Shown here: piece by piece, positions 5,545 to 63,965 of the stretch
How the letters are laid out: the number at the start of each line of letters is the position of its first letter
Position numbering within the stretch: position 1 is the first letter of the stretch
DNA from: Bryobacterales bacterium
GTDB lineage: Bacteria > Acidobacteriota > Terriglobia > Bryobacterales > UBA6623
NCBI GenBank assembly: GCA_965242705.1
Contig: OZ251486.1
Span: 333,945-397,944 of the forward strand
Reading direction: 5' to 3'
Length of the DNA: 64,000 nt
Notes under the pieces: model-generated
What the model saw: only the letters and a program-made list of their open reading frames with translations
Database searches by the model: none
What the model was told of the DNA's origin: nothing
Program-made: the position numbers and the translations under genes

Positions 5545-5723
5545 GGGAAGAGGCCGGGACGTGCGTGTTGTTCGGAAAAAACGCAGCCGGGTGGGGCACC
5601 TGGCCCCAGCGGACCGTGACTTCCACAGCCCTCCCAACCGCTGCAACCGATTTTCGCACGCAAAACGCCGAAAAGTCAACTTTTCCGTTTTTGCGGCGAT
5701 TTTTTCGGGAACAACCGGCGCTG

Positions 5724-8618: not shown

Positions 8619-11600
8619 TTATTCAACGGCGATCGTGGCGTCGGACTGGCTGATGCGGCTGGCGACGGCGAGGCGCAACTCGGCGGCGTTTGACGGGGTG
8701 AGGTTGCGCGGGACTTCCACGACCACCAAGTTGACCCCGGCCATGTCCGGGGCCAGTCCCGAAAAGCGGACGTTCTCCGCGGGCAAGGGCCAAACGCCGA
8801 TCCAGACCCGCGGGCGCGCCGCCGTATGCCGCAGCACGGCGTTCGAGCCGTCTTCGAGGCAGACGCCGTCCGGGGCGCATGAGTTCATCCCGTCGACCAA
8901 CGGCGGCTCCACCGCGCCCAGACCCGTCGCGTAGATCTCCAGCACGTCGCCGGCGCGCGCCGGGCGGCTGCCCGCGCTGAAACCCAGCGGCGCCGCCAAG
9001 TCGGTCGTGCCCGCGAACAACGCCAGCGCTTGGCCTTGCCCCGTGCCCGACGCCGTGAACACGCCCGGCGCATAGGGGCCGACCCAGAAGCGCCGCGGCC
9101 AACTGCTCTCGCCGCCGGACTCCACCACCACGCTCGCCAAAGCCAAGCCGCCCGCCGCTGTCTCTTCGCCGCCCAACTCCCAGGGCAACTGCGCCTCGAT
9201 GCGCCGCGGCCCCACCGAAAACAGAGGAACCGCCGCCCCGTCGAACAACACGCGCGCGCCGCCCAGGCTCGTCGGCAGCGGGAAGCCCTCGGCCATGACC
9301 GGCTCGCCGGATGCGAAGTTCACGCCCTGCACGACCACCAGCGAACCCGGCGACACGGGCAGCAACTGCGGCCCGAACAGCCCCGCCTCGCCGTAGGCGC
9401 TCGCCCGCGCCGCGTCGAACACGCCGCCGCTCTCCGATACGTCCGGCCCCGTCGGCGGGGGGACTTCCAGCACGATATTCACTCTGGCCGTGAGGCGTCC
9501 GCCGGCGCGGATGTACAGCCGTCCGCGGTGAGTTCCCGGCCGCAGCCCCAGCGGATTGACGGTCACGAGCAGGGTGATCGTCTCGCCGTCGGCCAGGCGG
9601 CCTCTCCACTGGGCAGCGCTGCCCTCCGCCCGCGAGACCTGGATCCAGCGCGCGCTGGGCAGCGCCTGGAAGTCCGTTGCGCCGCCTTCGGCGCGCAGCG
9701 TCAGCGTCTGCGACATCGGCTCGCCCGGGTCGGCGTTCGGCGCCGGCGCGAACGACAACTCGGAAACGCCCACCGGCTCCACCGACGGCCCCGGAGCCCC
9801 CGGTTGTTGCGGTGGTTCCGATACGGGTACGAGTTTGGGTTCGAAAATGGTTATGCGGCACGGCCCGAGAGGATCGCTGCCCGGCGGCTGCGGGCTGACC
9901 TTGCGGATGCGGTTGTTGAGCCTGTCGGCGACGTAGAGATTGCCCGCGCCGTCCACCGCCACGCCCGAGGGTTGGCGCAGGCGTGCTGCGGTCGCGGCGC
10001 ATTCATCCCCGTTGTGGCCGGATTGGCCGCTTCCCGCGACGGTGGAGATATTGCCCGTAGAAGCGTCCACTTTGCGGATGCGGTTGTTGTTCCTGTCGGC
10101 GATGTAGAGATTGTTCGACGAGTCCACGGCCACGCTGTAGGGTTGGTTGAGGCGCGCCGAAGCGGCCGCTCCGCCATCCCCGCTGAAGCCGACGAGGGAG
10201 TAGCTTCCCGCGACCGTAGAGATGACGCCCGTGGAGGCGTCCACCTTGCGGATGCTGTGGCTGGCGTTTGCGGCGATGTAGAAGTTGCCCGCCGAGTCCA
10301 CGGCCACGTCCTGGATCTCGAAGAGCCGCGCCGCCGTCGCCGCGCCCCCGCCGCCGACCGTTGTCCCGCCTCCCGCGACGGTGGTAATCACGCCTGCCGT
10401 ATCCACTTTGCGAATTCGGAAGCTGTAGCGGTCAACGAAGTAGATGTTGCCCGAGCCGTCCACGTCCAGGCCGTAGGGGAATCTGAGGTTCGCCGAAACG
10501 GCTGGTCCGCCGTCGCCGCTGTAGCCGTACGTCCCGCTTCCCGCCACGGTGGAGATGACGCCCGTGGAGGCGTCCACTTTGCGGATGCGGTTGTTTCTGG
10601 TATCGGCGACGTACAGGTTGCCCGCCGAGTCCGCCGCTACGTCGCGGGGCAAGGCGAGTTGCGCCGACGAGGCCGCGCCGCCGTCGCCGCTGTAGCCGTA
10701 CGTCCCGTCTCCCGCGACGGTGGAGATGATGCCCGTGGAGGCGTCCACCTTGCGGATGCGGTTGTTCCACGTATCGGCGACGTAGAGGTTGCCCGCCGAG
10801 TCCGCGGTTACCTCTTGGGGCAAGGCGAGTTGCGCCGCCGGGGCCGCTTCGCCGTCGCCGATATTGCTCGTTCCCGCGACGGTGGAGATGGCGCCCGAAG
10901 CATCCACCTTGCGGATGCGGTGGTTGCCCCGGTCGGCGACGTAGAGGTTGCCCGCCGAGTCCGCCGCTACGCCGTAGGGCAAGAAGAGTTGCGCCGCCGT
11001 TGCTGCGCCCCCATCGCCGCTGTAGCCGCCCGTCCCGTCTCCCACGACGGTGGAGATGGCGCCCGAAGCATCCACCTTGCGGATGCGGTGGTTGTTGGCA
11101 TCGGCGATGTAGATGTTGCCCGCGCGGTCCACCGCTACGCCGCGGGGCCGTGAGATCCGCGCCGCCGTTCCCGCGCCGCCGTCCCCGTTGTAGCCGGACG
11201 TCCCGGTTCCCGCGACGGTGGAGATGATGCCCGTGGAGGCATCCACCTTGTAGACGAGGAAACTGAGCGTAACAGCGATGTAGAGGTTGCCCCTGCCGTC
11301 CACCGCTACGTCGTTGGGATCTGAGAGATGCGTCGCCGTCGCCAGCCTGCCGGCTGGGTCTATGCTGCGAATCCCGGTGCCTGCGACGGTAGAGACGTTG
11401 CCCGAAGCATCCACCCTGCGGATGCGTTGGTTGAACGTATCGGCGATGTAGATGTTGCCCGCCGAATCCACGGCCACGCCGCTGGGGCCGTCGAATTGCG
11501 CCGCCGCCGCCGGTCCGCCGTCCCCGCCGTAACCGCGCGTCCCGTCTCCCGCGACGGTGGAGATGGCGCCCGTAGAAGCGTCCACCTTGCGGATGCGGTC

Positions 11601-11960
11601 GTTCTGCTGATCGGCGATGTAGAGATTGTTCGACGAGTCCACGGCCACGCCGCTGGGGAAGGAAAGCTGCGCCGCCGCCGCCGCGGCCCCATCGCCGCTG
11701 TAGCCGCCCGCCCCGGTTCCCGCGACGGTGGAGATGGCGCCCGAAGCATCCACCTTGCGGATGCGGTGTGCGTACGTATCGGCGATGTAGAGGTTGCCCG
11801 CGCCGTCCACGGCCACGCCGCTGGGGAAGCGCAGGGATGCCGCCGCGGCCGCGCCGCCGTCGCCTACGCCCCTGCTGCCCGCGACCGTCTGGATGACGGC
11901 GTCGCTTTGCGCCGCCAAGCGGGGAGTGAAGAGCGGCGCGTGGAGAGCGATCGCCGCCAA
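8619..11960 (-). CDS. NHL-repeat protein with Solibacter-type (TIGR03437-like) C-terminal domain, paralog 1
   Basis: 1113-aa ORF. More than 15 NHL-type units (GNLY(I/V)AD..N.RIRKVDA.G.ISTVAG). The C-terminal about 420 aa are nearly identical to the 35232..37655 gene and end ..PRNLTPSNAAELRLAVASRISQSDATIAVE. Only a TTG start (11960) is available. Confidence 0.85.
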   Translation of the reverse strand: MAAIALHAPLFTPRLAAQSDAVIQTVAGSRGVGDGGAAAAASLRFPSGVAVDGAGNLYIADTYAHRIRKVDASGAISTVAGTGAGGYSGDGAAAAAAQLSFPSGVAVDSSNNLYIADQQNDRIRKVDASTGAISTVAGDGTRGYGGDGGPAAAAQFDGPSGVAVDSAGNIYIADTFNQRIRRVDASGNVSTVAGTGIRSIDPAGRLATATHLSDPNDVAVDGRGNLYIAVTLSFLVYKVDASTGIISTVAGTGTSGYNGDGGAGTAARISRPRGVAVDRAGNIYIADANNHRIRKVDASGAISTVVGDGTGGYSGDGGAATAAQLFLPYGVAADSAGNLYVADRGNHRIRKVDASGAISTVAGTSNIGDGEAAPAAQLALPQEVTADSAGNLYVADTWNNRIRKVDASTGIISTVAGDGTYGYSGDGGAASSAQLALPRDVAADSAGNLYVADTRNNRIRKVDASTGVISTVAGSGTYGYSGDGGPAVSANLRFPYGLDVDGSGNIYFVDRYSFRIRKVDTAGVITTVAGGGTTVGGGGAATAARLFEIQDVAVDSAGNFYIAANASHSIRKVDASTGVISTVAGSYSLVGFSGDGGAAASARLNQPYSVAVDSSNNLYIADRNNNRIRKVDASTGNISTVAGSGQSGHNGDECAATAARLRQPSGVAVDGAGNLYVADRLNNRIRKVSPQPPGSDPLGPCRITIFEPKLVPVSEPPQQPGAPGPSVEPVGVSELSFAPAPNADPGEPMSQTLTLRAEGGATDFQALPSARWIQVSRAEGSAAQWRGRLADGETITLLVTVNPLGLRPGTHRGRLYIRAGGRLTARVNIVLEVPPPTGPDVSESGGVFDAARASAYGEAGLFGPQLLPVSPGSLVVVQGVNFASGEPVMAEGFPLPTSLGGARVLFDGAAVPLFSVGPRRIEAQLPWELGGEETAAGGLALASVVVESGGESSWPRRFWVGPYAPGVFTASGTGQGQALALFAGTTDLAAPLGFSAGSRPARAGDVLEIYATGLGAVEPPLVDGMNSCAPDGVCLEDGSNAVLRHTAARPRVWIGVWPLPAENVRFSGLAPDMAGVNLVVVEVPRNLTPSNAAELRLAVASRISQSDATIAVE

Positions 11961-12112
11961 GGCGGCCGCCGCCCGCAGCGAGTGAAGAACACAACTCCCG
12001 CGCCCGCGCGAAAGCCCCGCCTTGGCGGCGGCAAGCAGGGCGCGGAGAGCAGACGGAAGAGAAAGAAGAAGCCGCGGGTCAGAGAGCGCGGCGAGCGCGC
12101 TTCTCCTTATAC

Positions 12113-12224
12113 GGGCTGACGGGCTGACGGGCTGACGGGCTGACGGGCTGACGGGCTGACGGGCTGACGGGCTGACGGGCTGACGGGCTGACGGGCTGAC
12201 GGGCTGACGGGCTGACGGGCTGAC
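12113..12224. repeat. Perfect tandem octamer array (GGGCTGAC)x14
   Basis: 112 bp of uninterrupted GGGCTGAC units read directly. Located 150 bp 5' of NHL paralog 1. An identical array is at 37995..38106. Confidence 0.97.
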
Positions 12225-12232
12225 CTCTTCTC

Positions 12233-12262
12233 ATGATACATCCTTCTCGCCTCTCATCGCAA
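12233..12262 (-). promoter_or_regulatory. Candidate sigma70-type promoter (TTGCGA-N18-TATCAT) firing into the octamer array toward NHL paralog 1
   Basis: On the minus strand, TTGCGA (12262-12257), an 18-nt spacer, TATCAT (12238-12233). A homologous TTGCAC-N18-TATACT sits at the same offset from the second array. Confidence 0.4.
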
Positions 12263-12437
12263 CAAAAAATTCGCGGCGACCCCAAAAACCATCCAAGCCG
12301 CCGATGAAACCCTATTTTCCCCTTCCCGCGCCGCCTTGTCAACAGCGCGGCGCATTTCCCGAGTCTTTTGGAAGGTCTGAACAAGCGCGGGCAGCCGGCC
12401 TGCCCGGGCAGGGCCAATGCGTCGATTTTCTTCTGCA

Positions 12438-12705: not shown

Positions 12706-13893
12706 CTATCCGCATTTGTTGTTGTCGCAGGGGCGGTGGCAGACGACCTTGTGGTCGGGCGTCAGGGTGCAGCCCACGGCGTCTTCGTCGCTCTGGCCGC
12801 AGCGGAAGAAGCATTCCGGCTCGCCGGGCGGGTTCTGGTTGGCGCGTGGGGGGCGGTTGCCGCCGCGGCCTCCCAGGGCTTCCCGCAGCGCGTTTTCGGC
12901 GATGCCGAGCGTCCGCGCCGCCGCGGCCATGTTTACCGGCTTGATGCTGCCGGGCTCGACGCGCAAGGCCTCGGCGACCTTGCCGCTGTCGATGCCCAGG
13001 GCCGCCGCGGCTTTGGAGACCTGCTCGGCGCCCGGGCGCGGGCCGCCGCCCGGCTCCCGCCGCGGCCGGCGGACGGGGCGGTTTTCGCTGACCGCGGGGC
13101 GCGACCGCCCGCGGTTGCGCATGCCCAGCGGCTCGCCGGAATAGCAGCCGATGATATAGGGCCACGTTTCCGTGGCGTGGTAGTGGTAATCGCCCGAATC
13201 GTCGGTATGGCCGTTGCAGGCGTCGAGGTATTCGGGGCCGTCTTTGGCGACATAGTCCCAGGCGTCCCAGGAATCGGTGTCGGGATTGCCGACTTTTTCC
13301 CAACTGCTTTTGAATTTCACGACGTCGGCGCAGTCGGCGTCGAGGCAGCCCCAGGGGCCGCGGATGGCGAAGCCGTCGTAGGCGAAACCGAGGATCGGCG
13401 AGCGTTCGCCTTCCCGCGCGCCGCTCAAGCAGCGCTGCACCAGCGCGTGGTAGTGGTATTCGAGCGCCGTATGCCCCATGCAGGCGTCCATGATGGAGTG
13501 CATCACCGGGTCGCCGAACTCGGCTTCCTGCGGCACCGGGCCTTCATTGGGTCCGAAAATGGCCAGCCCGCCGATGCTGAAGCCTTCGCTGCCCAGCAGC
13601 GGGATGGGGGTCGGCCTGTCGGCTTTTTGCGGATTCAGGGGAACGCGGAATTCGTAGTTCTGCTCGATCAGGGGATTGGGCGTGACCTGAATGAACTCGT
13701 AGTGCGGGATGCCGTTGGAGCGGACGACCAGCTCATCGCCTTCGCAGGAGGCTTCGAGGCGCGGCTTGGGGTATTCGGGTCCGGCGCCCTCGTATTTCGA
13801 GACGTCGAGGAAAACGTCGGTCGGGCAGGGCTTCCGTTGAGCCGGGACCAGGGCCGCGGCGAGAGCGAGGAAAACGCCCAGTCGGAACGTCAT
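12706..13893 (-). CDS. YHYH domain-containing secreted protein with a Cys-rich C-terminal tail
   Basis: ORF 12706..13944. The ATG at 13893 (ATGA overlap with the upstream stop) gives the signal MTFRLGVFLALAAALVPAQ. Motifs HTALEYHYHA and GDYHYHATE are present. Confidence 0.8.
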   Translation of the reverse strand: MTFRLGVFLALAAALVPAQRKPCPTDVFLDVSKYEGAGPEYPKPRLEASCEGDELVVRSNGIPHYEFIQVTPNPLIEQNYEFRVPLNPQKADRPTPIPLLGSEGFSIGGLAIFGPNEGPVPQEAEFGDPVMHSIMDACMGHTALEYHYHALVQRCLSGAREGERSPILGFAYDGFAIRGPWGCLDADCADVVKFKSSWEKVGNPDTDSWDAWDYVAKDGPEYLDACNGHTDDSGDYHYHATETWPYIIGCYSGEPLGMRNRGRSRPAVSENRPVRRPRREPGGGPRPGAEQVSKAAAALGIDSGKVAEALRVEPGSIKPVNMAAAARTLGIAENALREALGGRGGNRPPRANQNPPGEPECFFRCGQSDEDAVGCTLTPDHKVVCHRPCDNNKCG

Positions 13894-14738
13894 GGCTTGC
13901 GGGCCTCCAGGTGTTCGCGCAGAAAGTCGATGGTGAGCGGCCAAGCCGCTTGCGCGGCGGCCAGGTTGGCTCCGCCGCGGGCCTTTTGCTGCCGCAGGAA
14001 GGCGTGTCCCGCGCCGTCGAAAATATGCGGGGCATAGCTTTTGCCGAGTTGGCGCATGACGCGCGCCGCTTCGGGAATCGCAGCGTTGACGCGGGCGTCG
14101 TCCGCGCCGTAGAGGCCGAGCACGGGGGCGCGTATCCGCCCCAGGGTCTTGCGCTCCGGCGACGTTCCGTAATAGACGACCGCGGCGCCCAGCCGGTCTT
14201 CGTTGCCGGCGAACTCGAAGCTCGCCGCCCCGCCCCAGCAGAAGCCGATGCAGCCGTACCTGCCGTTGGAGGCGGGCAGGGAGGCCGCCCAGCGCGCCGT
14301 CGAGGTCAGCCGGCGCGCCACGTCTTCGGTGCGGCGCCCGCGGATCAGCTTGACCGCCTCTTGCGCGTCGTCGGGCGTTCGGCTGGCGGGGCCGTAGCCG
14401 CTCAGCAGGTCGGGCGCAACGGCGATGAAGCCCGCGGCGGCGAGCTGGTCGGCGACGGCGCGAACCCAGTCGGTCAGGCCGAAGATTTCATGGATGACGA
14501 TGACGGCCGGAGCGCGGGTCGCCCGTTCGGGATACGACACCCAGGCGTGAACCGAATCGCTCCACGAATCGCTGCGGCCTTCGCGGATTTCGATCCATTC
14601 GCCATGGCGCGGGGATGCGTTCAGGCGGGCAACGGCGGATTCGGCGTCGGCGGGCAGCTCATCTTCCCCGCCGCGGGCAGCGGCCCAAGCAAAGGCCGCG
14701 GCGGCGAGCAGTGCCGCCGGCAAGATGCGGAGTTTCAT
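13890..14738 (-). CDS. Dienelactone hydrolase family protein
   Basis: 282 aa with a signal peptide. Motifs VIVIHEIFGLTDWVR..AD.LA..GF.A.APDL and CIGFCWGG are typical of the DLH family. Confidence 0.85.
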   Translation of the reverse strand: MKLRILPAALLAAAAFAWAAARGGEDELPADAESAVARLNASPRHGEWIEIREGRSDSWSDSVHAWVSYPERATRAPAVIVIHEIFGLTDWVRAVADQLAAAGFIAVAPDLLSGYGPASRTPDDAQEAVKLIRGRRTEDVARRLTSTARWAASLPASNGRYGCIGFCWGGAASFEFAGNEDRLGAAVVYYGTSPERKTLGRIRAPVLGLYGADDARVNAAIPEAARVMRQLGKSYAPHIFDGAGHAFLRQQKARGGANLAAAQAAWPLTIDFLREHLEARKP

Positions 14739-14786: not shown

Positions 14787-16322
14787 CTACAGCGTTTTTT
14801 CGCGCTCGTGCTCATAGACGACGTTGCCGTCAACGTCATGGAAGCGGAAGGCGATTTTGCTCTTGTCGAGCATTTTCTCGGCGGTTACCGAGAGGAAACC
14901 GCCGGCCACGCGGTGGAAGCGGTGGTAGTCGCCGTCTTCGCCCGGGCTGCCGCCGGCATGTTCGTCCGTCGCCGGCCCGGATGAAAATTCGTTGACGCCC
15001 GTTGCCGGATGCACCGAATGGTACTGCCAATGCCGGTCGCCGCAGGCGATGAAGAAGTTGTCGGGCAGGTTTTCGGCGAACCATTGGCGCATTTCGTCCC
15101 CTTCGCGGGTGAAGCCCTTGTTGGCGTGGTTGTCGTTTTTGTTGCTGCGGTCGGGGCCGACGATCGGCGTCGGGCTGACGAGCACTTTCCAATCGGCGTT
15201 GCTTTCGAGCAGCGTTTGCTTGAGCCAGCTTTTTTGCGTTTCGCCCCAAATGCTCTTGCCGGGGCCGTCTTCCATGGTGTTGGGCGAACGAAAATCGCGC
15301 CCCTCGACTACCCATACCTGCAAGCCCTTGCCCCAGCGGAAGGTGCGGTACGGCAATTCGCTCATCGGCGCCTGCTCGCTGTACACCTTCAGCCCCTGTT
15401 CCCAACTGAAGGTTCCCATGTACCAGCGGCTCATGCCCGGCCAGTTGTCGTTGTGGTATGAGTCGTGGTCGTCTTTTTCCCAGTAGCCCGGCACGCTGAG
15501 ATGGAATTCCAGAATGGTCGGGAAGCTGTACATGCGATGCCAATGGAAGCGCGCCAAGTCGATTGAGGTGGCCAGCGGCGCGTCGCTGTCGTAATAAACC
15601 GTGTCGCCCGTGGGCACGATGAACTTCGGCGCGAGCTTGAGCATGGACGGATAGATCTTGAAGCCGTCGGGGTGGTCGTGGTCGTGGTTGGACTGCCCGG
15701 TGACCACGGTGAAAGTCACGGCGGCGTATTCGTCTTCGGGCGGCGCGGTTTCGAAGCGCGCGTTCAGCGGCTTGTGCAGCACCGCGCCCGCGGCGTCGGA
15801 AGTTTCGGTCTCGACGTAATAGACGGTCGCGGGCTTCAGGCCGCTGAGCTTGAAGTGGTGCGTGTAGTCGTCTTCGGCGCCGACTTCGAACCATTCGCTC
15901 TCGACGGGGTCGAAGAAATTGACGTTGTCCGCGTAGCGCAGGCGCACGCGGCCGGGGGCGCCGGGAACGGAGTGCTGCAAGCCGCTCGGGTCGAGTTGAT
16001 TGTGCAACAGCCGGACGCCGCCGTCATTGTCCTGCAGGCCGGAATGCTGCGAGTCTCTCGGCTCATGCTGCACGACAAGTTTGTTTTCATGCCCGGCGGG
16101 CGGCTCTTCGTACTTCGGCTTGACCACGCGGGCGCGGATGGGCGTTCCGTCGGCGCGGCGGCCGGCGGCGGCGGTAACCCGCGTCCAGACGACCGCCGCG
16201 GTCGAGGTGACTTCGCCGATCTTGACGCCGGTCGCCTGCCGGGATTCCTGCAAGTACTCGACGTCGGAACCGCAGCTTGCGGCGGCGGCGAGGGAAAGAA
16301 CGACCGCGGGGAAACAGCGCAT
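14787..16322 (-). CDS. PhoD-like alkaline phosphatase/metallophosphatase (lipoprotein-type signal)
   Basis: 511 aa. N-terminus LSLAAAASCGS. Metallophosphatase motifs PTGDTVYYD, WEKDDHDSYHNDNW, GDRHWQYHS. Confidence 0.85.
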   Translation of the reverse strand: MRCFPAVVLSLAAAASCGSDVEYLQESRQATGVKIGEVTSTAAVVWTRVTAAAGRRADGTPIRARVVKPKYEEPPAGHENKLVVQHEPRDSQHSGLQDNDGGVRLLHNQLDPSGLQHSVPGAPGRVRLRYADNVNFFDPVESEWFEVGAEDDYTHHFKLSGLKPATVYYVETETSDAAGAVLHKPLNARFETAPPEDEYAAVTFTVVTGQSNHDHDHPDGFKIYPSMLKLAPKFIVPTGDTVYYDSDAPLATSIDLARFHWHRMYSFPTILEFHLSVPGYWEKDDHDSYHNDNWPGMSRWYMGTFSWEQGLKVYSEQAPMSELPYRTFRWGKGLQVWVVEGRDFRSPNTMEDGPGKSIWGETQKSWLKQTLLESNADWKVLVSPTPIVGPDRSNKNDNHANKGFTREGDEMRQWFAENLPDNFFIACGDRHWQYHSVHPATGVNEFSSGPATDEHAGGSPGEDGDYHRFHRVAGGFLSVTAEKMLDKSKIAFRFHDVDGNVVYEHEREKTL

Positions 16323-23444: not shown

Positions 23445-23816
23445 ATGCCCCCCTCTTCCCTAACCCCTAATCCCCAACCCCTGACCCCTGCCGCGCTTCG
23501 CGCGGCCCTGCTCTTGCTGCCGCTGTTTCATGCGCTTTGGGCGCAACAGGCGCCCAGGCCGCGCATGACGCTCGACCGCCGGCTCGCCGCCATCGAAGCC
23601 CGCCTCGCCGCCATCGAAAAGCGCGTTGCCGAGCCGCCGCCGGCGGCCGCCGCCGCCAGCCTCGACCAGGCAAAGCTCGACCGGCTCGAGGCGCGGGTGA
23701 TCCGCCTCGAAGAGAGCCCGGAACGCCAAATCGGGGCCGTCGTATCCGTGCGCGATCTCGAAGCGCGCATCCGCTCGCTCGAGCGCCAGGTCGCCCGGCT
23801 GCGCCGCGACCCGTGA
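23445..23816 (+). CDS. Small secreted coiled-coil protein
   Basis: ATG at 23445 with gaaggag 8 nt upstream. 123 aa. Heptad-like LAAIEARLAAIEKRV.. The N-terminal signal is encoded by a REP-like element. Confidence 0.5.
   Translation: MPPSSLTPNPQPLTPAALRAALLLLPLFHALWAQQAPRPRMTLDRRLAAIEARLAAIEKRVAEPPPAAAAASLDQAKLDRLEARVIRLEESPERQIGAVVSVRDLEARIRSLERQVARLRRDP
23455..23503. repeat. REP-like element, CCCTAA-type variant, translated as a signal peptide N-region
   Basis: ttccctaacccctaatccccaacccctgacccctgccgcgcttcgcgcggcc. Confidence 0.6.
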
Positions 23817-29176: not shown

Positions 29177-30231
29177 GCCGCGCCGTCCTCCCGCGCCTCC
29201 GCGGCGCCGGCCGCGGCTTCAGCCGGCTCGGCGCCCTCGGTTTCCGCCGGCTCGGCCTCGGCGGCCGCGGCCGATTCGGTCTCCGCGCTTTCTACCGGCG
29301 CGGGCTCCGCGGCTTCGACGGCTTCAACCGGCTCGTTGTCCGCGGTCTCTGCGGCTTCGGCTTCAGCGGCGTCAACCGGCTCGTTGTCCGCGGCCTCTGC
29401 GGCTTCGGCTTCAGCGGCTTCAACCGGCTCGTTGTCCGCGGGCTCTGCGGTCTCGGCTTCAGCGGCTTCAACCGGCTCGTTGTCCGCGGTCTCTGCGGCT
29501 TCGGCTTCAGCGGCGTCAACCGGCTCGTTGTCCGCGGCCTCTGCGGCTTCGGCTTCAGCGGCTTCAACCGGCTCGTTGTCCGCGGGCTCTGCGGTCTCAG
29601 CTTCAACGGCTTCAACCGGCTCGTTGTCCGCGGGCTCCGCCGTTTCGACTTCGGCGGCTTCAGCAACTTCGGCGGGCTCGCTCTGCGCGGCTTCGGCCGA
29701 TTCGGCGTCCGCCGTTTCCACCGGCGCGCTTTCCGCGGCTTGGCTTTCCGCGGCTTCGACGGCGGCGGGCGGTTCGTCTTCGCGGCCTTCGGCGCGGACT
29801 TCGACCTTGACCGTCGCCTCCACGTCTTTGTAGAAGCGGATGGGAACCTCGTAGTCGCCGACGACGCGCAGAGGCGTTTTCAGGTCGATGCGGTGGCGGT
29901 CGATGGCCAGCCCCTGTTCGGCGAGCTCGGCGGCGATGTGGCGGTTGGTGACCGAACCGAAGAGTTGATCTTCGCGGCCGGCGCGGGCCGTCACGCGGAC
30001 AACGACGCCTTCGAGCGCCGCGGCCTGTTTCCGAGCGTCGCCGCGCAGGCGAACCGCCTCGCGCTGCGCCGCCGCCCGCATCTCGGCGAGTTGCTTGAGG
30101 CTGCCCTTGTCGGCGGGGATGGCCAGCTTTTGCGGATAGAGGAAATTGCGGGCGTAGCCGTCGGCGACCTTGACCACCTGACCGCGGTCGCCCAGCTTGT
30201 CGATGTCTTTTTTGAGGATGACTTCGAGCAT
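29173..30231 (-). CDS. rplI: 50S ribosomal protein L9 with an acidic tandem-repeat C-terminal extension of about 200 aa
   Basis: N-terminal 150 aa MLEVILKKDIDKLGDRGQVVKVADGYARNFLYPQKLA.. is canonical L9. It is followed by the E/A/D-rich repeats (ADNEPVEAAEAE..). Confidence 0.85.
   Translation of the reverse strand: MLEVILKKDIDKLGDRGQVVKVADGYARNFLYPQKLAIPADKGSLKQLAEMRAAAQREAVRLRGDARKQAAALEGVVVRVTARAGREDQLFGSVTNRHIAAELAEQGLAIDRHRIDLKTPLRVVGDYEVPIRFYKDVEATVKVEVRAEGREDEPPAAVEAAESQAAESAPVETADAESAEAAQSEPAEVAEAAEVETAEPADNEPVEAVEAETAEPADNEPVEAAEAEAAEAADNEPVDAAEAEAAETADNEPVEAAEAETAEPADNEPVEAAEAEAAEAADNEPVDAAEAEAAETADNEPVEAVEAAEPAPVESAETESAAAAEAEPAETEGAEPAEAAAGAAEAREDGAA
29311..29646. repeat. 7 x 48-bp tandem repeat inside rplI (16-aa unit E(A/T)AE(T/P/A)ADNEPV(E/D)A(A/V)EA)
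   Basis: Unit boundaries read directly: 29311-29358 encodes EAAETADNEPVEAVEA and 29599-29646 encodes ETAEPADNEPVEAVEA. There is a higher-order 144-bp periodicity. Confidence 0.9.
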
Positions 30232-32507: not shown

Positions 32508-33455
32508 TTATTCGAACAATACGCTGATCGAAGTCTCGTCGTGGATCGAGGCGATCGCCTTGGCCAGCAGCGGCGCTACGCTCAACTGGCGGATTTTGCC
32601 GCACTCGCGGGCCTGCGCCGAGAGCGGGATCGAGTCGGTAACCACGATCTCGGTCAGCCCCGATTCCTTGATTTTAGCGACAGCGGAGCCGGAAAGCACG
32701 GCGTGTGTGCAGCTTGCGTAAACCGCGCCCGCTCCTTTTTCGAGCAGCGCCTCGACGCCCTGCACCAGCGTTCCGGCGGTATCGACCAGATCGTCCACGA
32801 TCAGGCAGGTGCGGCCCTTGACCTCGCCGATGACGTGCATGACCTCGGCGACGTTGGCTTCCTGGCGGCGCTTGTCGATGATCGCCAGCGGCGCCTTGAG
32901 GCGCGCGGCGAGAGCGCGGGCGCGCCGCGTGCCCCCGGCGTCGGGCGAAACCACCGTCAAATGCGGCAGTTTGAGTTGCGAGAGGTAATCGACCATGACC
33001 GGGCGGCCGTAAAGATGGTCAACCGGAACGTCGAAGAACCCCTGGATTTGCGCCGCGTGCAGGTCGAGCGTCAGCACGCGGTCCGCGCCCGCGGTGACCA
33101 GCAGGTTGGCCGCCAGCTTGGCCGAGATGGGGACGCGCGGCCTGTCTTTGCGGTCTTGCCGCGAATAGCCGTAGTAGGGCAGCACCGCGGTGATGCGTTT
33201 CGCCGACGAGCGGCGCAGCGCATCGAGCATCAGCAGCAACTCCATCAAATGCTTGTCCACGGGCGTACAGGTCGATTGGACGACGAAAACATCCATGCCG
33301 CGGACGTTCTGCTCGATTTGCAGATAGATTTCGCCGTCGGAAAACGTCTGCAGCAGGTGCTTGCCCGGCTTGACCCGCAGGCAGTCGCAGATGCTGCGGG
33401 TCAGCTCCGGGTTGGCGGAGCCGCTGAACACGCTCAGACGCTTGCGATCGGCCAT
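32508..33455 (-). CDS. prs: Ribose-phosphate pyrophosphokinase
   Basis: 315 aa. LSVFSGSANPEL.., DLHAAQIQGFF, and the PRPP-binding loop LIVDDLVDTAGT. Confidence 0.95.
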   Translation of the reverse strand: MADRKRLSVFSGSANPELTRSICDCLRVKPGKHLLQTFSDGEIYLQIEQNVRGMDVFVVQSTCTPVDKHLMELLLMLDALRRSSAKRITAVLPYYGYSRQDRKDRPRVPISAKLAANLLVTAGADRVLTLDLHAAQIQGFFDVPVDHLYGRPVMVDYLSQLKLPHLTVVSPDAGGTRRARALAARLKAPLAIIDKRRQEANVAEVMHVIGEVKGRTCLIVDDLVDTAGTLVQGVEALLEKGAGAVYASCTHAVLSGSAVAKIKESGLTEIVVTDSIPLSAQARECGKIRQLSVAPLLAKAIASIHDETSISVLFE

Positions 33456-34425: not shown

Positions 34426-34971
34426 CTACGAGTCGTAGCGCAGCAACGCGGCGACGTCATGGCCGTCGAGCTTGGCGCGGCCGTTGAGGAAGCCGAGTTC
34501 GATGACGAACGACAGCCCGGCGACCGTCCCGCCCAGGCTTTCGATCAATTCGACGGCGGCGGCGGCGGTTCCCCCGGTCGCCAGCAGGTCGTCCACGATG
34601 AGCACGCGCTGCCCGGGCTCGACGGCGTCGGTATGAATCTCGAGCGTATCGCTGCCGTATTCCAGTTCGTAGCTGACTTGCGTCGTCTCCGCCGGCAGCT
34701 TGCCGGGCTTGCGCACCGGCGCGAACCCCGTGCCGAGATCGGCCGCCAGTTGCAGGCCGAACAGAAAGCCGCGGGATTCGATGCCCGCGACCAGGTCGGG
34801 GTTCAGCCCGCGCGCCTGCTCGGCCAGCGCATAAGCGATGAGCTTGAGGCCTTTCGCGCTCTTCAGGGCGGTGGTGATGTCGTAGAACAGGATGCCCGGC
34901 TTGGGGAAGTCCGGCACTTCGCGGATCAGAGATTTCAGTTCGTCCATAGCGCTGCGGCCCGAAGCGTCCAT
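34426..34971 (-). CDS. apt: Adenine phosphoribosyltransferase
   Basis: [22 protein letters not shown].. and [13 protein letters not shown]. Start at 34971 or 34947. Confidence 0.9.
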
Positions 34972-34980
34972 GATAACCGA

Positions 34981-35015
34981 GCGGCCGACCCGCGACCCGC
35001 CGGGCCGCGCTTTGC
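34981..35015. repeat. Degenerate REP-like element
   Basis: ggccgacccgcgacccgccgggccgcgctttgccgc: a GACCCG tandem motif plus a decayed GC hairpin. Confidence 0.5.
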
Positions 35016-35110
35016 CGCTATTTTCCATCCGCCGGCGCTTGACACAGGAAAAGGCTTGTGTGAAAATTGAATTGAATGATGCGCCCACGAGTTCCTGCGA
35101 GTACTCGTGG

Positions 35111-35147
35111 AAAAATTATGGCCCGCGGGAATCCGCGGGCCATTTTT
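35111..35147. terminator. Bidirectional rho-independent terminator downstream of NHL paralog 2
   Basis: Perfect 11-bp stem ATGGCCCGCGG (35118-35128) / CCGCGGGCCAT (35133-35143), GAAT loop, flanked by AAAAATT on the left and TTTT on the right. Confidence 0.75.
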
Positions 35148-35231
35148 ACAGGAGCGCCCATGGGGATTCGCTATCTGCCGTGAGACCGCTCCGCGCCCTC
35201 ACTCTACGGCGTTCTTATTCAACGGCGCCCG

Positions 35232-37655
35232 CTATTCAACGGCAATCGTGGCGCCGGACTGGCTGATGCGGCCGGCTAGGGCGAGGCGCAACTCGGCGGC
35301 GTTTGACGGGGCGAGGTTGCGCGGGATTTCCACGATGACCAGGTTGACGCCGGCCATGTCCGGGGCCAGGCCGGAAAAGCGGACGTTCTCCGGGGACACC
35401 GCGTATGCGCCGATCCAGACCCGCGGGCGCGCTGCGGTATGCCGCAGCACGGCGTTCGAGCCGTTCGCCAAGCAGACGCCGTTCGGGGCGCATGAGTTCA
35501 TGCCGTCGGCGAGCGGCGGCTCCACCGCGCCCAGGCCCGTCGCGTAAATCTCCAGCACGTCGCCGGCGCGCGCCGGGCGGCTGCCCGCGCTGAAACCCAG
35601 CGGCGCGGCCAAGTCGGTCGTGCCCGCGAACGTCGCCAGCGCCTGTCCCTGGCCCGCGCTCTGTCCCTCGCCCGAGACCGTGAACACGCCCGGCGCGTAG
35701 GGGCCGACCCAGAAATGCCGCGGCCAACTGCTCTCGCCGCCGGATTCCACCACCACGCTCGCCAACGCCAAGCCGCCCGCCGCTACGGCTTCGCCGCCCA
35801 ACGCCCAGGGCAACTGCGCCTCGATGCGCTGCGGGCCTACGGCCATCAGCGGAACCGCCGCGCCGTCGATCAGCACCCGCGCCCCGCCCAGCATCGTCGG
35901 CAGCGGAAAGCCCGCCGCTTCCATGCGCTCACCCGAAGCGAAGTTCACGCCCTGCACGACCACCGCGGCGCCCGGCGCCAGCGGCAGCAACTGCGGCCCG
36001 AACAGCCCGCGCTCGCCGTAGGCGCTCATGCGCGCCGCACTGAATACGCCGCCGTTCTCCGACACCGCCGGCCCCGTCGGCGGGGGAACTTCCAGCACGA
36101 TGCGGATCGCGGCCGTGACGCGCCCGCCGGCGCGGATGTACAGCCGCCCGCGGTGGGTTCCCGGGCGCAGCCCCAGAGGGTTGACGCTTACGCGCAGGGT
36201 AGTCGTCTCGCCATCGGCCAAGCGGCCTCTCCATTGGGCAACGTTGCCGTCCGCCGACGAGACCTGTATCCAGCGGGCGCTGGGCAGCGCCTGGAAGTCC
36301 GTTGCGCCGCCTGCGGCGCGCAGCGTCAGCATCTGCGGCGCCGGCGCGGAGGAGTCGGCGTCCGGCGCCGGCGCGAACGACAACTCGGAAACGCCCACCG
36401 GCTCCACCGACGGCCCCGGATCCCTCGGTTTCGGCCCGGTCGGCGGCGGCGGAGGCGGCAGGAAGAAGGTCACCTTGCGGATGCGGTGGTTGCTCGAATC
36501 GGCGATGTACAGGTTGCCCAACCCGTCCACCGCCAAGCCGCGGGGGTGGTAGAGTCGGGCCGCTGTTGCCGCGCCGCCGTCCCCGCCGTATTCGCCCGGC
36601 GAAACTCCCGAAATCTGGGTAGGCCCCGATCCCGCAACCGTGGTAATCACCCCGGCCGCATCCACTTTGCGGACGCGGTTGTTCCACGTATCGGCGATGT
36701 ACAGGTTGCCCAATCCGTCCAGCACCACGCCGCGGGGGGCTCTCATTTCGGCCGAAACGGCCGGGCCGCCGTCCCCGCTGAAGCCGCGCGTCACCGTTCC
36801 CGCGACCGTGGTAATCACCCCGGCCGCATCCACCTTGCGGATGCGGCGGTTGCCCGAGTCGGCGATGTAAAAGTTGCCCAATCCGTCCAGCGCCACGCCG
36901 CCGCGGAGAAGGGACATTTGGGCGGACGTGGCTTGGCCGCCGTCGCCGGTGAAGCCGCTGCCCCCCCCCACTCCCGCTACGGTGGTAATCACTCCCGCCG
37001 CGTCCACCTTGCGGATGCGGTAGTTGAAGGTATCGGCGATGTAGATGTTGCCCGACCCGTCCGCGGCTACTCTGAAGGGGTTGTTGAGTTGGGCGGACGC
37101 GGCCGAGCCGCCGTCCCCGCTGTAGCCTTGCGTCGTTCCCGCGACGGTGGTAATCACCCCGGCCGCGTCCACCTTGCGGATGCGATGGTTGCTCGAATCG
37201 GCGATGTACAAGTTGCCCAATCCGTCCAGCGCCACGCCGCGGGGGGTGTTGAGTTGGGCTGATGTTGCTGCGGCGCCGTCGCCGCCGTAGCTGGCGACTC
37301 CCGTTCCCGCGACGGTGGTAATCATCCCGGCCGCGTCCACCTTGCGGACGCGTTCGTTGTCCGTCTCAGCGATGTACAGGTTGCCCGCCCCGTCCACCGC
37401 TACGCCGTGAGGGTTGTTGAGTTGGGCCGATGCGGCCGGGACGTTGTCGCCCAACGCCGATCCGCCTCCCGCGACCGTCTCGATGGTCGGGACAGCGACC
37501 GGGATGCCCTGCGCCGAGGCGGCCGCCGCCGCCAAGTGGAGGGCGAAGAGCGCAAGTCCCGCCTTGCCGGCGGCAAGCCGGGCGCGGAAAGAAGACGGGA
37601 AGGAAAGAGAAGGCTGCGTGGCGGAGCGTATGGCGATCATGCGTGTGGCGGTCAT
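35232..37655 (-). CDS. NHL-repeat protein with Solibacter-type (TIGR03437-like) C-terminal domain, paralog 2
   Basis: ORF 35232..37793. The ATG at 37655 gives MTATRMIAIRS..LALFALHLAAAAASAQG, a signal peptide. NHL units are present. The C-terminal half is nearly identical to 8619..11960. Confidence 0.85.
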   Translation of the reverse strand: MTATRMIAIRSATQPSLSFPSSFRARLAAGKAGLALFALHLAAAAASAQGIPVAVPTIETVAGGGSALGDNVPAASAQLNNPHGVAVDGAGNLYIAETDNERVRKVDAAGMITTVAGTGVASYGGDGAAATSAQLNTPRGVALDGLGNLYIADSSNHRIRKVDAAGVITTVAGTTQGYSGDGGSAASAQLNNPFRVAADGSGNIYIADTFNYRIRKVDAAGVITTVAGVGGGSGFTGDGGQATSAQMSLLRGGVALDGLGNFYIADSGNRRIRKVDAAGVITTVAGTVTRGFSGDGGPAVSAEMRAPRGVVLDGLGNLYIADTWNNRVRKVDAAGVITTVAGSGPTQISGVSPGEYGGDGGAATAARLYHPRGLAVDGLGNLYIADSSNHRIRKVTFFLPPPPPPTGPKPRDPGPSVEPVGVSELSFAPAPDADSSAPAPQMLTLRAAGGATDFQALPSARWIQVSSADGNVAQWRGRLADGETTTLRVSVNPLGLRPGTHRGRLYIRAGGRVTAAIRIVLEVPPPTGPAVSENGGVFSAARMSAYGERGLFGPQLLPLAPGAAVVVQGVNFASGERMEAAGFPLPTMLGGARVLIDGAAVPLMAVGPQRIEAQLPWALGGEAVAAGGLALASVVVESGGESSWPRHFWVGPYAPGVFTVSGEGQSAGQGQALATFAGTTDLAAPLGFSAGSRPARAGDVLEIYATGLGAVEPPLADGMNSCAPNGVCLANGSNAVLRHTAARPRVWIGAYAVSPENVRFSGLAPDMAGVNLVIVEIPRNLAPSNAAELRLALAGRISQSGATIAVE

Positions 37656-37790
37656 GTGGCTTTTCCAATTACTGACAAATCGAACTTTTTTATATTTTAC
37701 CTTACTTATTCTTTTTAATATGTACTTTACAATACATAAGAACTCTCGGCTGTTGCGTTTTTGCCGGCTGGGAGCAGGAAACGGGGAACC
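37656..37790 (-). promoter_or_regulatory. Strongly AT-rich 5' region immediately upstream of NHL paralog 2 (candidate promoter/UP region)
   Basis: About 130 bp of AT-rich sequence (ttatattttaccttacttattctttttaatatgtactttacaatacataag) in an otherwise GC-rich locus. Absent from the paralogous locus 1. Confidence 0.35.
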
Positions 37791-37994
37791 CACCAGCGGA
37801 ACGGCGCTTGCCGTCCGCGTTGCCGGCTACATTGCCGGCGGGGCGCCGGCGGCGCCGCCGGCGAGTGAAGAGCGCGAGCTCCGCGCCCGCGTGAAAGTCC
37901 CGCCTTGCCGGCTGCAAGCGGGGCGCGGAGAATCGAAAAAAGGAAGGAAGCGCCGCAGGCCGGGGAGCGCAGCGAGCGCGCTTCTCCTTATGAC

Positions 37995-38106
37995 GGGCTG
38001 ACGGGCTGACGGGCTGACGGGCTGACGGGCTGACGGGCTGACGGGCTGACGGGCTGACGGGCTGACGGGCTGACGGGCTGACGGGCTGACGGGCTGACGG
38101 GCTGAC
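37995..38106. repeat. Perfect tandem octamer array (GGGCTGAC)x14, second copy
   Basis: 112 bp, same unit and same copy number as 12113..12224. The flanks are homologous (gcgagcgcgcttctccttat | array | ctcttctca.tatacatc). Confidence 0.97.
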
Positions 38107-38114
38107 CTCTTCTC

Positions 38115-38144
38115 AGTATACATCTCTCTCGCCTCTCTGTGCAA
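38115..38144 (-). promoter_or_regulatory. Candidate sigma70-type promoter (TTGCAC-N18-TATACT) firing into the octamer array
   Basis: On the minus strand, TTGCAC (38144-38139), an 18-nt spacer, TATACT (38120-38115). Same position relative to the array as at locus 1. Confidence 0.4.
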
Positions 38145-38224
38145 CATGGTCCTTATTTTGAAACAAAACGACTTGCTTTGCAATAATTTTGCAACAGAAA
38201 ATTGCGGCAACCCCAAAAATATCA

Positions 38225-38372
38225 TCCGGGCCGCGCGAAGCGCGGCGGTCACGAGTCGCGGGTCAAGCCGCAGCGGCGAAGCCGCCCGCGACTGCCGCGC
38301 CGCAAGGCGCGGCCCCCTAACCCCCAACCCCTGGCCCCTAACCCCTGCCGCGCCGCAAGGCGCGGCGTCTTT
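38225..38372. repeat. Composite REP-like cluster (three GC hairpins plus a CCCTAA-like C-tract block)
   Basis: gccgcgcgaagcgcggc, gccgcgccgcaaggcgcggc (x2) and ccccctaacccccaacccctggcccctaacccct. Confidence 0.7.
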
Positions 38373-57513: not shown

Positions 57514-58788
57514 TCACGGGTCGGGCGCGCAGACTTGCGGGTTTTGCTGCAGCCATTCTAAGAGGGCTTCGGCGGCCCAGCGGTGGCCGTCGGCGTTCCA
57601 GTGGAAATCGTGGCGCCATTGCGCATCGCTGAGCGCGGCGCCTTGGCGCAGGATGTAGTCGGTCTGATCGATGACGGGAATGCCCAGCGCCGCGGCCATG
57701 GCGCTCATCCGCTCGAAAACGAGGGGACCGCGGAGCTTCGCGGTGTGCGAGGCCAGGATGACCAGAGCCGCTCCGTCGCGGTCGGCGCGCTGCTTGAACT
57801 GTTCGAGGGCGAAGGCCGTGTAGTCGAGGGCGTCCTCGAAAACGGGCAGCGGATCGTTTGCGGTGAATACTTGTTCCACGAATACTTGGTGCATGTTTTG
57901 CTGCGTGACCGGCGGCCAGTCTGCAAGCAGCGCGGCATAGCGCGGGCGTTGGCGCAGCGTTTCCACCCACAAAGGCAATCTGAGGGGGTTCCCTGCGCAG
58001 TTAGCGGGAATATGCAAGCACATTTGCGCATCCAGCCAGCGTGCGAACCAGGAGAACTTGACCGCTCGCCACAGGATATGTACGTACCAGGGGTCCGGCG
58101 GGCCGGGCGGGGGGCGCGGCAGGGTGAATTGCGCGGCGTCAGGATGGGGAGGGCGCAGCTCGATTTTTCCGTCGGGGCGCCTTGCCGCATGGATCTCGGG
58201 TATGTAGTCCGGGTCGAAACCGCGCTCCAATGAATGCAGCAGGGGATGGTTGTCGAGAAAGTCGTTGTGGACGAAAACCTGCACGACCAGTTTGGGGCGC
58301 AAGCGCCGGGCAAAGTCGTCGTAGTAGGGCAGTTGATGGATTTGGCCGATGCCGTTGTAGCCGAAGGCCGACGTCGTAACGTTCAGACGGGGCAGGGCGG
58401 CGGCGGCGAGCGCTTCGAGGCGGACGTGGGATTTTTGGGCGATGGGCACGTCCTTTGCCTCGACGAAGGAGTCGCCGATGAAGGCGATATGGCAGCCCGC
58501 CGCGGCGCGTTCGGGGCTGGGCGGTTCGCGGTCGAGAAAGCCCAGGCTGTTGGCGCGCGAGACGGCCCAGAAGTCGAGCCGGTTCGTATAGCGGATCTCC
58601 GTGTGGGGTTTCCGGAGATAAGCCCCTCTGTAACGAATTTCTTCAGGGGGAAAAGAGTTCGTCATGAACGGCTTGGTCCGCCGCAACCAGGTTTCGCCGG
58701 CAACCGCGATCAGCGCCGCAGCGGCGGCAAGCAGTGCTGCATTCCAGGCGATCAGGCGCAGCGCGCGGCGGATTCGATTGGGGGGCAT
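57514..58788 (-). CDS. Membrane-anchored SGNH/GDSL-like hydrolase/acyltransferase, paralog P5
   Basis: ATG at 58788, 3 nt after the P4 stop. MPPNRIRRALRLIAWN (C6 tract). IAFIGDSFVEA; DFHWNADGHRW. Confidence 0.85.
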   Translation of the reverse strand: MPPNRIRRALRLIAWNAALLAAAAALIAVAGETWLRRTKPFMTNSFPPEEIRYRGAYLRKPHTEIRYTNRLDFWAVSRANSLGFLDREPPSPERAAAGCHIAFIGDSFVEAKDVPIAQKSHVRLEALAAAALPRLNVTTSAFGYNGIGQIHQLPYYDDFARRLRPKLVVQVFVHNDFLDNHPLLHSLERGFDPDYIPEIHAARRPDGKIELRPPHPDAAQFTLPRPPPGPPDPWYVHILWRAVKFSWFARWLDAQMCLHIPANCAGNPLRLPLWVETLRQRPRYAALLADWPPVTQQNMHQVFVEQVFTANDPLPVFEDALDYTAFALEQFKQRADRDGAALVILASHTAKLRGPLVFERMSAMAAALGIPVIDQTDYILRQGAALSDAQWRHDFHWNADGHRWAAEALLEWLQQNPQVCAPDP

Positions 58789-58791
58789 GGA

Positions 58792-62518: not shown

Positions 62519-62636
62519 GAACGGCTTGGTCCGCCGGAGCCAGGTTTCGCCGGCAACCGCGATCAGCGCCGCAGCGGCGGCAAGCAGTGTTGCATTCCAG
62601 GCGATCAGGCGCAGCGCGCGGCGGAGTCGCTTGTAC

Positions 62637-62654
62637 GGGGGGGGGGGGGGGGGG
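62637..62654. repeat. G18 homopolymer (C18 on the coding strand) immediately after the P2 ATG
   Basis: Counted directly: 62637-62654 are all G. cat (ATG) at 62655-62657. Confidence 0.95.
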
Positions 62655-62660
62655 CATGGA

Positions 62661-63929: not shown

Positions 63930-63965
63930 GGGGCGCGGGTCACGGGACGGCGCGCGCTTTGCGCG
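63893..63965. repeat. Composite REP element: hairpin, G-tract core, hairpin
   Basis: gccgcgctttgcacggc | ggtcgcgggtcggcgagtcacggggcgcgggtcacggg | cgcgcgctttgcgcg. Spans the P0/P1 junction. Confidence 0.7.

Follow-up and report, generated by a model that had tools for sequence, protein, structure and literature searches.

The stretch analysed here (the window, 64,000 nucleotides (nt) of contig OZ251486.1 from a Bryobacterales bacterium of the Acidobacteriota; G+C content 66.6%) holds two perfect arrays of the octamer GGGCTGAC, each situated 5′ of one of two paralogous minus-strand genes, NHL-1 and NHL-2, whose products combine NHL repeats with a TIGR03437 domain. Tandem Repeats Finder returns two period-8 repeats free of indels (100% matches), one at 12111-12224 (14.2 copies, score 228) and the other at 37991-38106 (14.5 copies, score 232), and a regular-expression search places exactly 14 full units at 12113-12224 (array 1) and at 37995-38106 (array 2), with no run of two or more units elsewhere in the 64-kb window. 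The three-unit pattern yields 24 matches, compared to 0.00 expected from 100 dinucleotide-preserving shuffles. The array flanks are homologous, with identity at 124 of 155 positions downstream (80%) and 33 of 40 upstream, and the first 20 nt past the array are the same at both loci; the original prediction of 14 uninterrupted copies between homologous flanks is thereby confirmed. Despite this flank identity of only ~80%, the 28 units of the two arrays contain no substitution, which argues for ongoing slippage and homogenisation. The divergence of the flanks is close to that of the genes themselves (NHL-1 and NHL-2 are 69% identical in protein and 76.5% in DNA over 2.3 kb), suggesting that the array-bearing module is as old as the NHL gene duplication. 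The largest assembler k-mers in usual practice are 119-141; because the periodic stretches (114 and 116 nt) are shorter than these, a collapse artefact is unlikely to explain the equal copy number of the two arrays.

On the minus strand, the body of NHL-1 extends over 8619-11960 when counted from a TTG codon at 11960, and it comprises NHL β-propeller repeats followed by the C-terminal TIGR03437 domain (Soli_cterm, for Solibacter C-terminal). Profile matches exceed curated cut-offs for both NHL-1 (PF01436, 245 bits; TIGR03437, 124 bits) and NHL-2 (PF01436, 128 bits; TIGR03437, 117 bits), and the NHL-1 open reading frame (ORF) is intact over 1113 aa with a strong coding signature (G+C at third codon positions, GC3, of 0.86). 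A signal-peptide-like hydrophobic core precedes the NHL repeats, the TIGR03437 domain is present at the C-terminus, and the NHL proteins are predicted to be secreted. On the gene strand the repeat unit is GTCAGCCC, which has no stop codon in any frame and of which three units translate as QPVSPSAR; on the plus strand every unit contains TGA. Array 1 (minus strand, (GTCAGCCC)x14) is continuous with the NHL-1 frame, which, traced back from the gene body, remains open across the leader and the entire array until TGA 12233-12231 closes it, 6 nt 5′ of the array. There is no in-frame ATG, GTG or TTG between array 1 and TTG 11960, a distance of 50 codons, and TTG 11960 itself falls midway along the hydrophobic core of the predicted signal peptide (AAAALAAIALHAPLF); the true NHL-1 start must accordingly be located upstream. 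The intervening leader (11961-12110, minus strand) begins with ATA and continues as IRRSALAAL...KAGLSRGRG... up to the signal-peptide core. The arrays had been described as not coding, which is not supported at NHL-1, where the gene strand is open in three frames and in phase with the gene, ATG codons lie just upstream, and no canonical start follows; the accompanying statement that ORFs reading through the array have unrelated flanks is correct for the plus strand, but not for the gene strand.

Candidate start codons cluster immediately 5′ of array 1 (12232-12241, minus strand), in both of the frames that are not used by NHL-1, and are open into the array from distances of 17 and 10 nt. ATG 12241-12239 is preceded by GAGAGG-N8, encodes MYHEKRSAR... 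(MYHEKRSARQPV...), and its frame ends at TAA 12109-12107; ATG 12234-12232 encodes MRRGQPV..., and its frame ends at TGA 12081-12079. With 14 units neither ATG is in frame with NHL-1, while 13 or 16 units would join ATG 12241 to the gene and 12 or 15 units would join ATG 12234. Two promoter-like sites accompany these codons on the minus strand: a proximal sigma-70-like site at 12233-12262 (TTGCGA-N18-TATCAT), with a –10 hexamer that ends 8 nt (GAGAAGAG) before the array, and an upstream site at 12314-12342 (TTGACA-N17-GAAAAT), with a block TTGACAAGGCGGCG that is homologous to the upstream promoter of related modules (below). Directly after the array lies a GC hairpin (12081-12106, minus strand; GGAGA-AGCGCG-CTCGC-CGCGCT-CTCU). 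A Shine–Dalgarno-like TAAGGAG that follows the array was considered as a ribosome-binding site and rejected, as no start follows it; this purine run encodes the Lys/Arg-rich n-region and pairs within the hairpin.

That a slippage-prone repeat varies expression at these genes is, as a class of explanation, well supported, and we give about an even chance to the more specific proposal that the arrays are slipped-strand contingency switches of the Opa type. The module would consist, in 5′ to 3′ order, of an upstream promoter, one or more start codons, a second promoter with its –10 hexamer 8 nt before the repeat, the octamer array, the ATA codon, a Lys/Arg-rich leader with the GC hairpin, a signal peptide, and the NHL propeller. 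Slipped-strand mispairing at replication would add or remove one 8-nt unit and, because 8 is not divisible by 3 and no canonical start lies between the array and the signal peptide, each such change would shift the upstream ATG(s) into or out of the NHL frame, resulting in translational ON/OFF phase variation. NHL-1 would be OFF at n = 14 and ON at n = 13/16 through ATG 12241 or at n = 12/15 through ATG 12234, with wrong-frame translation ending at TAA 12109-12107 or TGA 12081-12079. The proposal presupposes that the upstream ATGs are transcribed and used, and that slippage occurs at a useful rate, both of which are inferred. At both loci the repeat is perfect, tandem and non-triplet (period 8, 14 units, 100% identity), and in NHL-1 and its relatives the wrong frames meet a premature stop while a class of repeat numbers restores the reading frame. 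The closest precedent is the Neisseria opa family, in which CTCTT repeats within the leader-peptide coding region set ON and OFF states by frame and most copies are OFF at any time (PMC3960869). Likewise, the NHL array is a perfect non-triplet repeat placed between a putative start codon and the signal-peptide region of a multi-copy family predicted to be surface-exposed or secreted, with window wrong frames that stop right past the array and no alternative start downstream. The differences are that the unit here is 8 nt long and encodes a hydrophilic extension in front of the signal peptide (QPVSPSAR) rather than part of the hydrophobic core, that the putative upstream ORF contains a conserved promoter-like site abutting the repeat, and that the NHL modules reside in a free-living Acidobacterium instead of a host-adapted pathogen; use of the upstream ATG is here putative.

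Homologous modules in related contigs provide an opportunity to separate conserved from variable features. The window's Prs protein (32508-33455) is 73-76% identical to those of Bryobacterales metagenome-assembled genomes, with closer relatives at 88-98%, and comparison contigs were found through close Prs homologs and through NHL homologs with truncated called N-termini. Four informative contigs (L121, L124, L125 and L126) all derive from the ENA assembly ERZ19489113, for which contig names suggest long-read (hifiasm-type) assembly; Prs of these module-bearing relatives is 88% identical to that of the window. Between the same flanks, and each before a different NHL gene, three of the contigs carry arrays of another octamer, GTCAATCC, in 26 (L121), 23 (L126) and 7 (L125) copies, the longest spanning 208 bp, and L124 retains a degenerate remnant of about one unit. 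The call for a search of other genomes for the octamer therefore had a split outcome: among the matches listed, GGGCTGAC itself occurs only in unrelated short arrays, but the homologous module exists with GTCAATCC. Copy number across the homologous modules is 7, 14, 14, 23 and 26, plus the degenerate remnant, values that belong to different loci and genomes. On these grounds the suggestion of phase or rheostat variation had named the right class, with hypermutable-type repeats lying between promoter-like sites and NHL bodies and relatives bearing 7, 23 and 26 copies.

The gene-strand plan of the relatives reads TTGACA-N18-TATCTT, 8 nt, ATG, 57 nt, TTGACG-N18-TATAAT (–10 hexamer TGTAAT in L125), 8 nt, and the array, followed by GTCA-ATA-AAG-AGG-AGT-AGC-GCG-CTC, the leader, the signal peptide and W(I/T)IETVAG; the window modules follow the same plan, and in each the proximal –10 hexamer ends 8 nt before the array. 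Every relative has its upstream ATG 95 nt ahead of the array, in a frame that stays open into the repeat; the NHL frame passes through each array without a stop, and both wrong frames end immediately past it (TAA, TAG). No canonical in-frame start follows the array for 92 (L121), 81 (L126), 43 (L125) or 77 (L124) codons. With 26, 23 and 7 units the three array-bearing relatives are out of frame, where 24/27, 21/24 and 6/9 units, respectively, would be in frame; in L124 the upstream ATG is fused in frame, via the leader, into the NHL domain, and gene calling had yielded a single protein (P0026). Conservation of the leader is at the protein level, and indels among the copies measure 3 or 9 nt. 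Between lineages ~12% apart in Prs protein, the module and its promoters are kept, as are the 8-nt period, the position of the array and its lack of stops on the gene strand, while the unit sequence differs. Array-less homologs, namely NHL-2 (MTATRMIAIRSATQPSLSFPSSFRARLAAGKAGL...) and the metagenomic ortholog P0003 on contig L113 (MKQKHARRSLRVAPPPKAGF...), have an ATG exactly at the array/leader junction, and the window's ATAAGG-AGAAGCGCGCTCGCC aligns with ATGAAGCAGAAGCACGCTCGCC of L113; this ATG marks the ancestral start position, at which all five array modules have a conserved ATA. Overall, the arrays form part of a 5′ switch module that is conserved, specific to the lineage and associated with a narrow NHL-repeat/TIGR03437 family in Bryobacterales.

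The leader family is nearly absent from protein databases. A homology search with the hypothetical in-frame N-terminus returned mostly spurious ORFs over unrelated arrays, with P0003 as the only true relative, and P0003 was likewise the sole match when leader plus signal peptide were searched exhaustively with HMMER. Metagenome scans with the unit plus conserved flank, and with the signal-peptide stretch common to L113, gave no match. Genes on L121, L125, L126 and L128 (an NHL contig from another assembly) are all called from internal codons, and gene callers would systematically truncate repeat-bearing genes of this kind; metagenome "pseudogenes" with 5′ repeats may, by the same token, be OFF-state genes.

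Several observations weigh against frame switching. Copy-number differences are seen only between different loci or genomes, and none of the four intact array-bearing genes is currently in frame, an outcome with a probability of ~0.1 under random copy number; this state is compatible with mostly-OFF families such as opa, and is not positive evidence for the switch. The "locked-ON" copy on L124 has a gene body that is fragmented downstream and may be decaying. The 31-codon upstream ORF of the relatives shows no coding signature, with substitutions distributed 31/32/35 by codon position and mostly non-synonymous. Every module has a sigma-70-like promoter that ends 8 nt short of the array; in the relatives this proximal site is near consensus (TTGACG-N18-TATAAT, 11/12), with conserved hexamers and a variable spacer, and at locus 1 both candidate ATGs overlap its –10 hexamer. 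The proximal promoter thus looks functional, in which case its transcripts would begin with the array and not include the upstream ATGs. In addition, six modules share 15 identical nt after the array, even at third codon positions, and these form a hairpin, which points to a function at the level of nucleic acid beyond what a frame model would predict. Each array is followed by this hairpin, AGCGCG(C)-N3-5-(G)CGCGCT with a GGAG/CUCC extension. Its folding is significantly more stable than that of shuffled sequences in the AT-richer relatives (z = –3.4 and –2.7), but not in the window (z = –0.8 and –0.6); a role as intrinsic terminator is plausible in the relatives, where a weak U-tract follows, and in the window, where there is no adjacent U-tract, no intrinsic terminator was called at this hairpin.

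The same features would suit a transcribed leader of the hmw1A/hmw2A or uspA2 type, in which the proximal promoter works, the mRNA begins with the 112 nt of the array, and copy number gradually tunes transcript level, stability or ribosome loading, with translation starting at ATA (a weak near-cognate codon) or at another non-canonical site. The repeats of uspA2 precede a normal start codon. We regard this leader rheostat as the main rival of frame switching, possible if somewhat unlikely. It would account for the promoter found in all modules with conserved hexamers, variable spacer and a fixed 8 nt to the array, for the ATA that occupies the ATG position in all five array modules, and for the nucleotide-level conservation of the post-array hairpin; array RNA in the sense orientation is, moreover, C-rich and essentially unstructured (–7.2 kcal/mol over 112 nt). 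Precedents exist in paralogous adhesin genes: in the H. influenzae hmwA promoters more copies of a 7-bp repeat (ATCTTTC) are accompanied by less mRNA (PMC2424069), and both hmw1A and hmw2A of H. influenzae biogroup aegyptius are preceded by 12-15 copies of the octamer GCATCATC (PMC3309571). The resemblance extends to two paralogous genes for large proteins, secreted or predicted to be so, that share the same upstream array in similar copy numbers near promoters. However, hmwA repeats precede a normal start codon and exert a graded effect on transcript level, whereas the NHL arrays are in phase with the gene frame and no canonical start follows for 43-92 codons in intact members. TAACTGA heptamer arrays provide a further parallel, as non-triplet short tandem repeats that lie just before start codons in free-living bacteria (Beggiatoaceae, Cyanobacteria and Bacteroidetes), in up to 43 copies and with a suggested post-transcriptional role (PMC4679880). 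Those arrays represent one conserved sequence over many unrelated genes and contain stops (TAA, TGA), in contrast to the NHL arrays, which vary in sequence by lineage, are stop-free on the gene strand and are tied to one protein family. A leader rheostat also leaves unexplained why array-bearing copies have lost an ATG that array-less homologs keep, and homologs whose ORFs have a clear start (L113 and L128, described below) bear poly-C tracts at this position that act by frame, not through leader length.

Recognition of the array as DNA or RNA was also evaluated, whether through a template-strand G-quadruplex, an array of regulator sites, or a repeat small RNA that titrates an RNA-binding protein. 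The plus strand does contain the G3-N5 pattern 14 times, as had been pointed out, and satisfies the canonical quadruplex rule (at least four G3 tracts with loops of 1-7 nt). The recommended predictor check, run with G4Hunter, gave a score of 0.99, below the threshold of 1.2; in a sequence this GC-rich, 4% of 25-nt windows reach a value as high as that of the array (≥1.0), and the plus strand of the window has 20 canonical G-quadruplex motifs. The related GTCAATCC arrays (complement GGATTGAC) have no G3 run, and the mRNA strand is the C-rich one, so that the proposed quadruplex control finds no support. The idea of a regulator-site array fares no better, given that period and position are conserved between lineages and the unit sequence is not; a CsrA-type sponge or fixed binding site was rejected on the same ground. 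A promoter, array and hairpin in succession could give a short transcript, consistent with the hairpin and weak U-tract after the related arrays, but the window hairpin is indistinguishable from shuffles and without a U-tract, and there is no Rfam match at the gathering threshold at either array. We therefore consider recognition of this kind highly improbable. The sole Rfam match in the window is a DUF3800-VI RNA at 5584-5640 on the minus strand (55.3 bits versus a gathering score of 35).

At the second locus, NHL-2 (35232-37655, minus strand, 807 aa) has its own ATG (37655 or 37640) and its own array-less copy of the leader, with an AT-rich promoter-like segment upstream (37660-37760). Array 2 (minus strand), which is followed by a partial unit GTC and forms the core of a duplicated, shortened module, lies ~340 nt from ATG 37655, with a shortened leader copy that ends at TAG 37827 and the AT-rich segment in between; the placement of the arrays 5′ of minus-strand NHL/TIGR03437 paralogs accordingly stands, but array 2 does not directly precede NHL-2. 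Within the module an ORF at 37827-38123 (minus strand) runs from ATG 38123 (MYTEKRSAR...) through array 2 in frame into a leader remnant (IRRSALAALPGLRRF...), which has one extra nucleotide (GTCATAAGG versus GTATAAGG), then a 2-nt deletion and divergent sequence up to TAG 37829-37827. The proximal promoter (38115-38143, minus strand; sigma-70-like TGCACA-N17-TATACT) again ends 8 nt before the array. Module 2 is a stranded, decayed partial duplicate of the 5′ module upstream of NHL-2, and array 2 probably has no part in gating translation of NHL-2, given the latter's own ATG.

Further details of this region were noted. The NHL-2 frame is open for 57 codons upstream of its ATG (37656-37829), through the AT-rich segment, and only the TAG at 37829-37827 parts it from the module-2 ORF in the same frame; the other two frames contain 3 and 6 stops over this interval, and the open frame could reflect chance or a recently broken fusion. 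Compared to module 1, module 2 has a ~50-nt insertion at 38146-38200 (TTGCAAAATTATTGCAAAGCAAGTCGTTTTGTTTCAAAATAAGGACC) with repeated TTGCAA motifs and, on the plus strand, a promoter-like TTGAAA-N18-AATAAT (38158-38187). Relatives with Prs 95-98% identical (L114-L120) have a DUF885 gene where the window has NHL-2 and module 2 (34426-38330), indicating that the NHL-2 locus is accessory (strain- or species-specific). Heptamer repeats (CCCCTAA / CCCTAAC-like, 4-5 copies) occur at 38290-38370 and 23458-23489; those at 38290-38370 are flanked by two copies of GCCGCGCCGCAAGGCGCGGC, each a GC hairpin, and look like REP-like or terminator-like intergenic elements. An AATCCCA-type run akin to them lies upstream of the module on L125.

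The persistence of a perfect array in the shortened remnant of module 2 bears on a third alternative, in which the arrays are neutral microsatellites in the 5′ regions of start-less, silent or decaying paralogs, or their length and identity were distorted by assembly. Fragmentation of the L124 gene and the out-of-frame state of all intact members would fit such neutrality, as would NHL homologs with plain frameshifts (L127 and L129), and a three-unit genome-collection scan found, among the matches listed, chance-like short expansions of the window octamer (3-12 units, with unrelated flanks) in many unrelated GC-rich genomes, mostly of Actinomycetota and Proteobacteria. Neutral drift is nevertheless improbable in our view: the NHL-1 ORF and related genes are intact, with a coding GC3 of 0.86 in NHL-1, and the module and its promoters were retained across lineages with a period of 8 while the unit sequence changed. 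An assembly artefact is similarly at variance with related arrays of up to 208 bp on probable long-read contigs, and with window arrays below the largest assembler k-mers. The frameshifts in question are single-base events that split NHL-family genes, at ~2478-2492 in L127 (C7 versus C6 in adjacent repeat copies) and at ~2400-2425 in L129, right after a normal signal peptide; they may represent pseudogenes, assembly errors or short-tract variation.

Returning to frame switching, other repeats occupy the equivalent position in NHL genes. On L113 a C11 tract (10038-10048) lies inside the leader, in frame after the ATG. On L128 a promoter (TTGACA-N16-TAGAGT) is followed by a well-formed start (GGGGAG-N7-GTG), 32 codons, a C25 tract (2237-2261), the leader and the signal peptide; there is no start past C25, and the frame is off by one nucleotide, although the homopolymer length may be assembly-uncertain. 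Three repeat types (two octamers and poly-C) therefore share one position in front of the signal peptide within the NHL gene family. In the window, at least five tandem minus-strand GDSL/SGNH (AlgX-like) paralogs at 57514-63998 have a common N-terminal anchor (RIRRALRLIAWNAALL...), and tracts of C19 (60041-60059), C16 (61351-61366) and C18 (62637-62654) on the gene strand occur right after start codons. The copy at 57514-58788 has a short, stable C6 in frame, and ATG 62657 with C18 is out of frame with its body (61373-62518), for which C17 or C20 would be needed. Alternative GTG starts in other frames of these paralogs overlap the stop of the preceding gene. The GDSL/SGNH tracts look like homopolymer contingency loci. 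Poly-C and poly-G contingency loci are known from 5′ coding regions of Neisseria, Campylobacter and Haemophilus, to which the C11 of L113, the C25 of L128 and the C16-C19 tracts of the GDSL/SGNH genes bear a likeness; this likeness concerns sister loci, the window finding proper being the octamer array.

Shine–Dalgarno-like motifs precede only 9 of the 28 window genes, and –10-like hexamers lie 6-10 nt before the starts at 16322, 47732, 54311 and 18981 (with examples TACAAT-N6-ATG, CATAAT-N8-ATG, TAAAAT-N6-GTG and TATACT-N10-ATG), such that leaderless mRNAs may be common and the upstream –10-N8-ATG of the related modules is a plausible leaderless start. A broader proposal would combine these features into a lineage-wide Bryobacterales contingency system, in which NHL and membrane-anchored GDSL/SGNH esterase families are switched stochastically by interchangeable pre-signal-peptide repeats (drifting octamers or poly-C). 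The octamer module would then be two-layered, with the frame set by the repeat deciding if translation begun at an upstream and perhaps leaderless start continues across the conserved GC hairpin, which would couple translation to transcription or read-through from the abutting promoter. We advance this extension tentatively and consider it quite unlikely as a whole.

Repeat-driven phase variation is textbook biology in host-adapted pathogens and, to our knowledge, is almost undescribed in abundant, hard-to-culture soil and freshwater phyla. A full-text literature search found no description of phase-variable repeats in Acidobacteria or Solibacter. Contingency loci are a known kind of element, and what is notable here is the phylum, the octamer unit, and the promoter-plus-hairpin arrangement. 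If the modules switch, Acidobacteria would stochastically hedge their cell-surface or secreted repertoire, with phage, predators or attachment niches as likely pressures.

The minus-strand neighbors upstream of array 1 encode a YHYH protein (12706-13944), a dienelactone hydrolase (13890-14738) and a PhoD-like phosphatase (14787-16322). A divergent-promoter arrangement at locus 1 was considered and rejected, as GC3 puts all three of these genes on the minus strand. Elsewhere in the window, a 48-nt tandem repeat at 29310-29662 (7.4 copies, 91% matches) displays a higher-order period of 144 nt and is probably a coding repeat within a minus-strand gene.

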